This document shows, in pieces, positions 29,460-31,638 of a stretch of DNA of 64,000 bases. Under the pieces are notes generated by a model, which was given only the letters and a program-made list of their open reading frames with translations, searched no databases and had not been told where the DNA came from. The translations under genes and the position numbers were made by a program. The stretch lies in the NCBI RefSeq assembly GCF_017348835.2, contig NZ_CP071375.1. One strand, 5' to 3'. Position 1 is the first letter of the stretch, and each line of letters starts with the position of its first letter. Source of the DNA: Escherichia coli (GTDB lineage: Bacteria > Pseudomonadota > Gammaproteobacteria > Enterobacterales > Enterobacteriaceae).

Positions 29460-30431
29460 ATGGTTGACATGAAAATTACTATCTGGGAAGGCTGTGACCT
29501 CACAGTTGCAGCTGCAATTAAATTATTTGTAGAGCGTAGTTCTCCGTACTCCATATTTTCACGGAGGTATCCAATACTGCGTCTCATACAGGAAGTTATT
29601 GATCCAGCAGTAGCTGATTATGTAAATTCCCTGCCACCAAGTCATAAAGACTACATTTCTGGAGTAAATCTAGGATTTAGTGAAGTACTTAAAAAATTGG
29701 GTTTAAACGTCGTAGTACAGGCACAAAGACTTCTTTTGCGTAATTTCGTTCTGACTTTAGATCAACAAACTTCTCTTGATAAATGCTTTACCGCTACGAT
29801 TGAGTCTCTTATTGAATTAGTCAGTGAATGCGCATCCAAGCGGCCGAAGAAATCCTCTCCTGCAAAAGGAGTAACTATAAATTCACAGCGTAAGCTCGGT
29901 TATTGCGAGTTCTGCGGTAATCTAACCGAATTTTCCAAGTTGATCAGTGAGATATCAGAATTTGTTGCTAACGATAATGAGTTCCCCGTTCATGAAAAAC
30001 AGGTCCTTAGTCATCGATATTGTTCTGACCATAGGCCCAAACTCACCAATGGTCTATGGAATCCCAAATACAGACAAGGAAAGCGGTCTCTCGAACAGTT
30101 CAATAAAGAATTAATAAGGCTTAGACGGCAATGCGCTAAACCTCATAAAGCTAACGCAAACACAGGGGATATATTGATTGATACATATTTTCATGAGTGG
30201 ATGCAGGGTCAAACTTTAACCCCAGCAGATCTAGATAAACTTAGGAATATCGCCAGACGAATGGTTGACTCCAAATTCACTGATACTAAGAAAAAAATAA
30301 TCATATTAAAACACCAAGGTTTTAACCAGTTTGAAACCGCACAGGTTTTAGAAAAAAATCACTACACAACTATGACAAAGCAGGCTGTGTCCAAGGCCTT
30401 AGCGTCTGTGAGGAAAGAATTTTATATTTAA
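29460..30431 (+). CDS. Hypothetical protein with a Cys/His cluster and a C-terminal sigma70-region-4/LuxR-like HTH
   Basis: 323-aa ORF from ATG 29460; CEFCGN...HRYCSDHRP zinc-binding-like cluster; C-terminal IIILKHQGFNQFETAQVLEKNHYTTMTKQAVSKALASVRK; divergent from alpA. Function not recognised. Confidence 0.5.
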   Translation: MVDMKITIWEGCDLTVAAAIKLFVERSSPYSIFSRRYPILRLIQEVIDPAVADYVNSLPPSHKDYISGVNLGFSEVLKKLGLNVVVQAQRLLLRNFVLTLDQQTSLDKCFTATIESLIELVSECASKRPKKSSPAKGVTINSQRKLGYCEFCGNLTEFSKLISEISEFVANDNEFPVHEKQVLSHRYCSDHRPKLTNGLWNPKYRQGKRSLEQFNKELIRLRRQCAKPHKANANTGDILIDTYFHEWMQGQTLTPADLDKLRNIARRMVDSKFTDTKKKIIILKHQGFNQFETAQVLEKNHYTTMTKQAVSKALASVRKEFYI

Positions 30432-30856
30432 AATAGTATATCCACGAGCTATTATGGTGGCAGTTTAAGTCTTAATACCATCCACTTTATTGAATTATAA
30501 CCAGCCACTTACGAAGGTTTTTCGCGATTACCCTGCTTCAAATTGATGATTTTGAAAATACAGTATTATAGTTTATTGTTTGTAGCGCAGCTGTAAGCGT
30601 TATGCAAAATGGATCACAGTGATACGACCTCACCAGTAAATCACTGAAGCCGATCTGTAATGACATAGAACGAATTGGTTTTATGGTTATGCAATGGCTC
30701 ATCCCCTTACTTGTCCCTGACCATAAAAAGCATTCGCTTTCCTGAAAGCAAGTCTAAGCCAAGGGGCGTTTACAGTTGTCTTATCTTGACTCATTAGGTA
30801 CTGGCTTAATGATTAGAATCATGTCGGTGGCATTTAGGTCCAAATATGCCCAAAAT

Positions 30857-30869
30857 TTTAGCAGCTAAA
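30857..30869. promoter_or_regulatory. 13-bp palindrome TTTAGCAGCTAAA (KorB operator-like variant), copy 3
   Basis: Same arms with a central A; lies in the non-coding region downstream of the membrane-protein gene. Confidence 0.4.
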
Positions 30870-31008
30870 ATTCGTCTTCTCATGTAGGGTCAAGAAGCTT
30901 ATGACTAAACCTATTGATTATGTGAATTACCTTGTGAGTAATACTCGTAGGATGGAATCTTCCAAAACTCTGACAATTCACTCTGAATGCATGGTAACAA
31001 AGAACAGT

Positions 31009-31638
31009 TTAAACCATGGTCTGTTCAGCGTTAAATTTCTCAAGATAGACTTCCATTTCGCGAGTCCACCTAGGGGTAGGTACCGAGGTGATCATTAGCC
31101 AAGGAAACCACCATACAAGCATGAAGAGTAACATAAGCGGTGCGATCATTTCGGCCGAAGAATGAGAAACTATATACATAATGAATAATATTAGTAGAAC
31201 TGTGTTTACAATCTGACCTACCAGAAAAAGACGCCAGCGAAAACAATGCCATTTCCTGTTGAACACAATCCGTCCATCCCGTTCTTCGAGCCAGTTACGC
31301 CACGGCTTGAGATAACCAGCCCGCAACCCATAACGATCACACATTATTACAGCCAAATCCTGCAGCCGATAATTATACAAGCCTGTGAGCCGATAAAGGC
31401 TGCGCTGACGAAGCTCACGCTTTGCCAGACGGACCGCATTTTTATTCAAATATGGCTGTGTCAGCATTTGCTCTAGCCGGCGCTTCCTAAGATTGAGTAG
31501 TCCACGAAATACACTTCCAGATTCAGCATTAATTACTCTGTGACGAACTACACCGAGTGCAATATAGATACACAGCAATAGCCAGCCGGTCTTAGGGTAT
31601 TGATTCATCCATTGTATAATTACAGACAACTCAGGCAC
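31009..31638 (-). CDS. Hypothetical membrane protein (one N-terminal and two C-terminal TM segments, basic cytoplasmic middle)
   Basis: 209-aa ORF with a GTG start; hydrophobic segments WLLLCIYIALGVV, LFLVGQIVNTVLLILFIMYIV and MIAPLMLLFMLVWWFPWLMI; no recognised family. Confidence 0.45.
   Translation of the reverse strand: MPELSVIIQWMNQYPKTGWLLLCIYIALGVVRHRVINAESGSVFRGLLNLRKRRLEQMLTQPYLNKNAVRLAKRELRQRSLYRLTGLYNYRLQDLAVIMCDRYGLRAGYLKPWRNWLEERDGRIVFNRKWHCFRWRLFLVGQIVNTVLLILFIMYIVSHSSAEMIAPLMLLFMLVWWFPWLMITSVPTPRWTREMEVYLEKFNAEQTMV

Follow-up and report, generated by a model that had tools for sequence, protein, structure and literature searches.

Core regulator, accessory membrane protein and KorB operators at the integrase-proximal end of a truncated PIME1-type island at guaA of Escherichia coli

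Mobilizable islands that use the 3' terminus of guaA, the gene of GMP synthase, as attachment site go by several names. The closest described relatives of the locus presented here are the PIME1 elements PIME1EcRHB23-C07 and PIME1MmNCTC12028 (10.64898/2026.01.12.698999), which occupy this site and combine an integrase gene (int), divergent alpA and luxR genes, repA, traJ with an IncP-like oriT region, trbJ/trbL and an accessory slot. PIME1 is a subfamily of the Pseudomonadota integrative mobilizable elements (PIMEs); its hallmark is the divergent alpA/luxR pair, and luxR distinguishes it from PIME2 (bioRxiv 10.64898/2026.01.12.698999). GIsul2 and the “IncP islands” of Brucella and Burkholderia (PMC9376610, PMC5704250) share the guaA 3' attachment, the int-alpA-repA(-repC) backbone and homologues of trbJ/trbK/trbL but differ in their cargo, which is arsenic and sul2 resistance, and the similarity of GIsul2 to the PIME1 element is only partial and low overall (10.64898/2026.01.12.698999). 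Here, we analyze positions 29,460 to 31,638 of a 64,000-nucleotide stretch of Escherichia coli contig NZ_CP071375.1 (assembly GCF_017348835.2; the whole stretch is called the window below), which hold one gene for a 323-residue regulator (luxR) and one for a 209-residue membrane protein (m209). We are rather confident that this interval represents the integrase-proximal end of a PIME1-type element at guaA truncated by an IS3-family insertion sequence, in which luxR is a core gene and m209 an independent accessory gene, and that the slot is bracketed by operators of the IncP-1 plasmid protein KorB.

The element is a PIME1-type integrative mobilizable element of the GIsul2/“IncP island” superfamily. 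Its int lies beside the 3' end of guaA, alpA and luxR are divergent with 77 bp between them, and a replicase gene and IncP-type traJ, trbJ and trbL are present; a complete element with both ends and a large accessory region is not. The chromosome of E. coli PE164 is 100% identical to the region and its RefSeq annotation gives the order guaA, int, hypothetical protein, LuxR, helix-turn-helix (HTH) protein, RepA, hypothetical protein, traJ, trbJ, trbL and IS3. The gene order of the window is also found in islands of Pantoea, Serratia, Phytobacter and Lonsdalea. The full version of the same element, of about 22 kb, resides in E. coli RM10042, where the island continues for about 13 kb beyond the point at which the window copy is cut, with a HigA antitoxin, an ABC-three-component system and a Fic/DOC protein, and ends beside yfgI. 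This means that the window copy is a truncated remnant: compared with RM10042 the IS3 element follows directly after trbL, and the accessory half, the far end and the chromosomal genes yfgH and yfgI are missing. From the PIME1 elements of the preprint it differs in this IS3 cut and in its slot, which holds m209 instead of a restriction-modification system. Neither the 209-residue protein gene nor the zinc ribbon and the KorB operators discussed below are described in that preprint.

The 323-residue protein is the core “luxR-family” regulator of PIME1 and not cargo. Related loci were collected by scanning one genome per species in 100,044 species genomes, from which 48 loci were obtained (L-numbers below are labels of the related loci compared). 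In every one of these 48 loci with a long enough contig luxR occurs together with alpA, repA, int and guaA, and guaA adjoins int in nearly all of them. More than 373 protein clusters of luxR were found in Enterobacterales, Vibrio, Aeromonas, Xanthomonas, Pseudomonas, Burkholderiales and Alphaproteobacteria. Two island layouts occur, one with alpA divergent from luxR as in the window and one with co-directional luxR and alpA followed by int. Depending on the record, PE164-type entries name the product “LuxR family transcriptional regulator” or “hypothetical protein”. In the Morganella morganii element PIME1MmNCTC12028 deletion of luxR abolished excision, circularisation, replication and transfer with the IncP-1 helper pB10, and transfer was partially restored by luxR in trans (10.64898/2026.01.12.698999). 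By homology with this Morganella element the luxR of the window probably acts positively and is needed for the island to excise and replicate in the presence of an IncP-1 helper. An earlier note, made from the sequence of the window alone, had described both genes as uncharacterised cargo of the int-alpA interval and offered an island regulator as one candidate role. The constant company of alpA, the life-cycle loss upon deletion of the homologue and the independent distribution of m209 speak against the two-gene cargo, and the regulator role fits the hallmark PIME1 gene well. Likewise the statement that neither protein matches a nameable family is only partly upheld: no family was found for either of them in Pfam, NCBIfam and PHROGs and PADLOC was empty as well, but the 323-residue gene is the luxR of PIME1.

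The Cys/His cluster and the C-terminal HTH that had been recognised in this protein are present. The cluster reads C149-E-F-C152 ... C188-S-D-H191 and none of the four residues varies in alignments of 18 and of 44 homologues with identities down to 38%. An AlphaFold2 model from the 44-sequence alignment (mean predicted local distance difference test score, pLDDT, 81.8) comprises a helical N-domain (residues 1-126), a disordered basic linker, a short β-knuckle that holds the four metal ligands, and a C-terminal half made of helices with the HTH at its end. According to this model the CxxC...CxxH region is predicted to be a zinc ribbon of the Cys2-Cys-His type and the HTH appears to be GerE/sigma-4-like. 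Typical LuxR/FixJ regulators differ since the window protein has no Pfam match at E<=0.001, GerE (PF00196) included, and carries its helical N-domain and the putative zinc ribbon instead of a receiver or autoinducer-binding domain; for the N-terminal 200 residues neither a Pfam match nor a fold match in the PDB was found. The best profile search hit in the PDB had E 0.25 and Foldseek against AFDB50 returned only the own family. As none of the Foldseek, Pfam, NCBIfam and PDB profile searches gave a significant match outside, the label “LuxR family” rests on a resemblance at the level of the HTH, and the regulator is best described as a family of its own with zinc ribbon, HTH and an N-domain that has no detectable relatives. 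A KorA- or TrbA-like HTH, which would point to a KorB-clamping partner, was considered and rejected: the hhalign alignment with R751 KorA covered 23 columns (E 0.015, probability 3%), and no match was obtained with TrbA.

The 77-bp spacer between alpA and luxR is conserved across proteobacterial classes. It contains a promoter-like TTGCTA-N16-TAAAAT at 29434-29461, also conserved across classes, the -10 hexamer of which overlaps the annotated ATG of luxR. The next ATG, 29469, lies 7-8 nt past this hexamer, and in other lineages the ATG follows 6-8 nt after a -10-like hexamer. This spacing in the window and in other lineages suggests that the luxR mRNA is possibly leaderless, transcribed from a conserved promoter, with a product of 320 residues. 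On the leftward side a conserved TGCCAAGCA block (about 29418-29432) is found at the expected -35 position of the alpA promoter, whose hexamers match the consensus poorly, and we regard this block as a candidate operator. An operator-like block at -35 together with weak alpA hexamers corresponds to the geometry of an activator-dependent promoter; therefore LuxR is proposed to activate alpA-repA.

The only true cargo of the slot is m209, which encodes an orphan inner-membrane protein found in few lineages. The three hydrophobic helices and the convergent orientation reported for it earlier are there: two strongly hydrophobic helices at the C-terminus and a shorter one at the N-terminus, separated by a segment of 100 residues that should be cytoplasmic because it is basic (23 K/R vs 8 D/E). 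Its layout is that of a two-helix membrane hairpin plus a cytoplasmic helical domain. Conservation is concentrated in the cytoplasmic segment (motif ELRQRSLY.LTGL...RLQ) and the membrane helices keep their hydrophobicity only. Ratios of non-synonymous to synonymous substitution rates (dN/dS) of 0.10-0.29 against four orthologues indicate that m209 is functional and under purifying selection. The family is small, with 28 clusters in a word-indexed search and 55 proteins of about 200-250 residues when 1.84 billion representatives were searched exhaustively with a profile. Orthologues located between int and luxR occur in Pantoea, Serratia, Lonsdalea, Phytobacter and one metagenomic island. Small plasmids carry distant homologues (41-55% identity), which there follow immediately after the gene, or a gene fragment, of a short tyrosine recombinase (L005, L006, L008-L011, L182). 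In L008 and L009 the homologue faces a DUF6710 protein and in L184 it is located near a KorB/ParA operon; none of the plasmid homologues adjoins a luxR homologue. The plasmid-side recombinase was considered as a relative of the island int and rejected, as the sequences are unrelated. Not even within the islands is m209 a regular component. In 41 luxR-int loci the slot between regulatory module and int varies from 17 bp to 4,061 bp and most of these loci lack m209; in several of them only 17-90 bp are left between the two. This variability agrees with the previous view of the int-adjacent interval as a hotspot for accessory genes, and the preprint also calls the region between int and the regulatory module accessory, with a restriction-modification system in the PIME1Mm slot (10.64898/2026.01.12.698999). 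In E. coli KMi025 (L012) the equivalent slot (14326-14991) holds an 83-residue open reading frame (ORF) and an EexN-family entry-exclusion lipoprotein. The pair of luxR and m209 was detected in 32 of 5,426 complete E. coli genomes. Since the two genes are distributed independently they have to be considered as neighbours and not as partners.

Between the two genes a 577-bp spacer contains a conserved block (segA, about 30563-30798) that keeps 79-88% identity between islands even where their luxR proteins share only about 40%. Single-base indels rule out that it is coding. Typical features are a promoter-like ATGACA-N16-TATGGT at 30660-30687 (+ strand), with invariant hexamers and a variable spacer, and three invariant CTGTAA/TTACAG motifs. 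The same ATGACA/TATGGT element precedes the cargo ORFs in KMi025-type islands. No Rfam family was assigned to segA or the 577-bp spacer and no homologue was found in the plasmid collection; the spacer shows no excess of RNA folding energy on either strand (z 0.18, 0.68). An 18-mer from segA gave 120 matches in metagenomes, most of them by chance and about ten of them real. The simplest reading is that segA may serve as promoter or leader for the cargo of the slot.

The operator of KorB (OB) is the 13-bp palindrome TTTAGCSGCTAAA. In the window it occurs exactly at 26366, 27253 and 31693, in all cases inside the island (3 vs 0.00 expected in 100 shuffles), and with one mismatch at 30857. The palindrome upstream of m209, which had been noticed before as KorB-operator-like, is the exact IncP-1 sequence, TTTAGCGGCTAAA, whose centre precedes the GTG start by 61 bp. 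Its 15-nt core TTTTAGCGGCTAAAA matches in full the OB oligonucleotide that served to load KorB in vitro (PMC11790492). The 48 loci contain 85 exact OBs in 771 kb and 39 of them have at least one, where about 0.02 sites would be expected by chance (2/4^13 per position). In L012 four exact OBs (0.03 expected) were counted, two of which (13950, 15178) bracket the cargo of the slot. The OB near m209 is found at the same position in L002, L003, L004, L014 and L015. In divergent islands the sites recur at the same places, i.e., soon after the luxR stop (or after the alpA stop in the co-directional layout) at a distance of 16-52 bp, within the oriT/oriV region and at the very start of the trbJ coding sequence. 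The luxR-proximal OB is exact in Gamma-, Beta- and Alphaproteobacteria and its flanks have completely diverged, which argues for selection on the OB itself.

In the basal layout (L032, L036, L045) luxR and int converge with 54-59 bp between their stops, and the OB lies in this gap, which is no position for a promoter. For this reason we favour a role in loading, as a centromere-type site or as a roadblock over classical operator occlusion. In the lineage of the window m209 was apparently inserted between luxR and this OB, with its 5' end facing the site. A direct repeat of 57 nt (30842-30898), which holds the one-mismatch OB, copies the int-proximal OB region (31678-31734). This second, slightly degenerate copy across m209 belongs to an E. 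coli/Phytobacter sublineage and is conserved in L014, L113, L121 and L132. Plasmid R751, of the IncP-1beta type like pB10, carries nine exact OBs in 50 kb, one of them at codons 5-9 of trbJ (L185 25579-25591) as in the trbJ of the island. With the KorB-OB regulon of IncP-1 plasmids RK2 and R751 (PMC11790492) the island thus shares the 13-bp palindrome, the 15-nt core and, as in R751, the OB at the 5' end of trbJ. It differs in that it encodes neither korB nor incC nor korA, and no operator of KorA was found in the window. Exact KorA operators (GTTTAGCTAAAC) were observed in the replication region of Buttiauxella/Erwinia/Citrobacter-type islands about 160 bp from an OB (L052 8266-8277; also L053, L054, L078, L107 and L138).

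According to the preprint only IncP plasmids induce the islands, the abundance of pB10 is lower as the island replicates and a “potential incompatibility” is considered; how the helper is sensed is left unexplained and KorB is never mentioned (10.64898/2026.01.12.698999). A full-text literature search for KorB together with guaA islands gave no match, and OB sites may have been mentioned earlier elsewhere. A comparable case is SGI1, which carries parS mimics of its IncC helper that stabilise SGI1 and destabilise or expel the helper (PMC10954446). Like SGI1 the PIMEs are mobilizable, replicate after helper-induced excision and bear copies of a helper ParB site, namely one to four exact sites of the ParB-family protein KorB, and PIME1 lowers pB10. 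They differ in helper family and site sequence. Moreover, KorB is also a global repressor, so that in PIMEs the sites could act on transcription too.

From these data we propose, on the strength of the sequence match, that helper KorB binds to the OBs of the island, with consequences that are conditional on it. In this sequence of events luxR would be made from its conserved and possibly leaderless promoter and LuxR would activate the divergent alpA-repA operon with its weak promoter via the conserved operator-like block. As OBs are found at fixed positions in such islands, helper KorB is expected to load there. The excised island could then use the IncC/KorB partition system of the helper, and titration of KorB by the island could lead to incompatibility and to the drop in pB10 abundance. 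Expression of m209 would be turned down when a helper is resident, and its product may fulfil a function of the helper-free state, be it exclusion or interference. That helper KorB is what PIMEs read and exploit in these three ways, i.e., for partition, for titration and for a reset of transcription including the shut-off of m209, is a tentative idea, to be taken as possible but not as probable.

Several observations weigh against our view of the locus or parts of it. Without its far end the window copy has probably lost its mobility, and in this strain its genes may be relics. The genetic data on luxR come from another PIME1 member and not from the window copy, and the activator role and the candidate operator are deduced from promoter geometry. 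A repressor or partition protein such as KorB does not by itself explain induction. The OB at the int/luxR junction is present also in loci without m209 (the three with basal layout mentioned above) and may therefore be unrelated to the regulation of m209. Furthermore, L007 carries m209 without an upstream OB, homologues outside the PIMEs have no OB either, and the promoter of m209 could not be placed with confidence. Finally, the 209-residue protein has almost only uncharacterised proteins as Foldseek matches in AFDB50; a DUF4231 protein (E 0.024) and a “SMODS and SLOG-associating 2TM effector” (E 0.032) appear at ranks 44-47.

For the 209-residue protein itself our best guess, held with low confidence, is a membrane-anchored factor in mobile-element conflict, either exclusion-like or similar to abortive infection (Abi) proteins. 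A more specific version is that it acts as a helper-responsive exclusion or interference factor against incoming conjugative DNA or type IV secretion machinery, which would be made in cells free of a helper and shut down by KorB after an IncP-1 plasmid has settled. In inner-membrane exclusion proteins the specific part is cytoplasmic, and so is the conserved specific part of the 209-residue protein. The exact OB upstream of its gene is conserved in six orthologous loci, the EexN-family lipoprotein in L012 occupies the equivalent slot between two OBs, and the island carries trbJ, a TrbK-like ORF and trbL besides. However, the protein shows no similarity in sequence or fold to known exclusion proteins, and a TrbK/EexN-type lipoprotein is not what was found, given the absent lipobox, the large cytoplasmic domain and the lack of an NCBIfam match. 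Together with the OBs that occur without m209 and the m209 genes of L007 and the plasmids that occur without an OB, this makes the exclusion factor an unlikely, though the least unlikely, alternative.

Still less probable is a membrane-disrupting effector or toxin, which could be SLATT/DUF4231-like or correspond to the “kil”-type genes that KorB silences on IncP plasmids. The hairpin of two helices with a cytoplasmic helical domain and the adjacent OB would suit such a protein, and the two weak Foldseek matches given above point in the same direction. Both are far below significance, though, behind dozens of uncharacterised proteins, and with Pfam empty they do not place the protein in SLATT/DUF4231. 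PADLOC has no entry for it, no sensor or antitoxin gene stands beside m209, and islands that carry m209 stably without a korB of their own could hardly do so if the gene were lethal.

That the OBs are inert relics, inherited with the IncP-derived transfer modules, we regard as improbable to a high degree. It certainly has a point in the site within trbJ: its location corresponds to that in R751, so that at least this OB was inherited by descent with the gene. Against it stand the OBs after luxR or alpA, which lie in non-coding DNA outside the IncP-derived modules and are exact in three classes amid diverged flanks, and the large excess of exact sites over the chance expectation.

The weakest reading, that the 323- and 209-residue genes form one accessory module of a sensor or regulator and a membrane effector for phage defence, Abi or exclusion, can draw on their adjacent and convergent position, on the retention of the pair in E. 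coli and in Pantoea, Lonsdalea, Phytobacter and Serratia islands and on a slot known to carry defence genes in other PIMEs, but it is largely refuted by the gene distribution described above (cluster numbers, luxR-int loci with an almost empty slot or one lacking m209, plasmid homologues without luxR) and by a luxR deletion phenotype that concerns the life cycle and not defence, and the search of PADLOC-DB, proposed earlier as a check of a defence pair, gave no match to a defence model for either protein at E<=0.1; this reading is very improbable.

The features of the integrase-proximal end and of its surroundings up to the IS3 element and guaA are collected in the following table.

Table 1. 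Features of the truncated PIME1-type island and its borders in the window (a point in the strand column marks sites without strand)
Feature	Position	Strand	Basis or remark
guaA (GMP synthase)	33257..34834	-	PE164 RefSeq annotation; 3' end is the integration site
int, P4-type tyrosine integrase	31762..32952	-	ORF listing, annotation, protein identity to relatives
Exact KorB operator (OB) TTTAGCGGCTAAA	31693..31705	.	Motif scan; between int stop and start of the 209-residue protein gene
m209, gene of the 209-residue inner-membrane protein	31009..31638	-	ORF listing; GTG start
OB-like site with one mismatch, TTTAGCAGCTAAA	30857..30869	.	Motif scan; within the 57-nt direct repeat
segA, conserved non-coding block	30563..30798	.	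Comparison with PIME1 relatives; extends up to about 30850
luxR-family regulator, 323 residues	29460..30431	+	Annotation, alignments, model; possibly 320 residues from ATG 29469
Predicted parts of the LuxR protein: N-domain 1-126; linker; zinc ribbon C149-H191; HTH	29904-30032 (zinc ribbon); about 30282-30407 (HTH)	+	Model
Divergent alpA/luxR control region	29383..29461	.	Cross-class conservation; function deduced
alpA-type excisionase/regulator	29152..29382	-	Annotation; Phage_AlpA in orthologous loci
RepA-helicase-family replication protein	28331..29146	-	Annotation, family search
Conserved hypothetical protein of the replication module, 257 residues	27541..28314	-	Position where related islands carry repC
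Exact OB, oriT/oriV intergenic region	27253..27265	.	Motif scan
traJ-II RNA leader (Rfam RF01760) upstream of traJ	26883..26981	-	86.9 bits, E 3e-16
traJ, IncP-type oriT-binding relaxosome protein	26500..26865	-	NCBIfam NF010451, E 2.6e-47
Exact OB within the trbJ 5' end	26366..26378	.	Motif scan
trbJ	25625..26419	-	PE164 annotation
TrbK-like small lipoprotein ORF, 57 residues, putative	25440..25613	-	ORF between trbJ and trbL
trbL, last island gene before the truncation	24046..25446	-	PE164 annotation
IS3-family element truncating the island	22602..23815	+	PE164 annotation vs RM10042

Some further observations concern the neighbourhood. The int protein shows 81-99% amino-acid identity to the integrases of related islands across three proteobacterial classes. 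If the window is compared with L017-L051, int is 81-88% identical across Gamma-, Beta- and Alphaproteobacteria and the luxR products of the same islands 43-55%, which means that int is unusually conserved relative to the rest of the element. The 57-residue ORF, which begins with MKDNFLIVFILISLLAICSC, is unannotated in PE164 and annotated as hypothetical in RM10042; its position between trbJ and trbL and its signal-peptide-like start fit a TrbK-like entry-exclusion lipoprotein. Downstream of guaA a sub-threshold match to the Trp leader of Rfam (33182-33253, - strand; 30.6 bits vs a gathering threshold of 41) overlaps a terminator-like hairpin, and most likely it is a chance match to this terminator hairpin. 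Beside the truncation the PE164 record, which is identical here, lists pdeF as a pseudogene interrupted by an internal stop.

In summary, the locus is no new defence pair; it represents the regulatory end of a truncated element whose island family was described only recently. Its 209-residue protein belongs to a small orphan membrane family of islands and plasmids in Enterobacterales. In Gamma-, Beta- and Alphaproteobacteria alike these islands are marked by conserved exact KorB operators, a hallmark that is absent from the preprint defining the family. If the proposed link to KorB is true, it would supply the helper sensing and the incompatibility left open by that preprint, and the PIMEs would be the second independent case, after SGI1, of a mobilizable island that mimics ParB sites.

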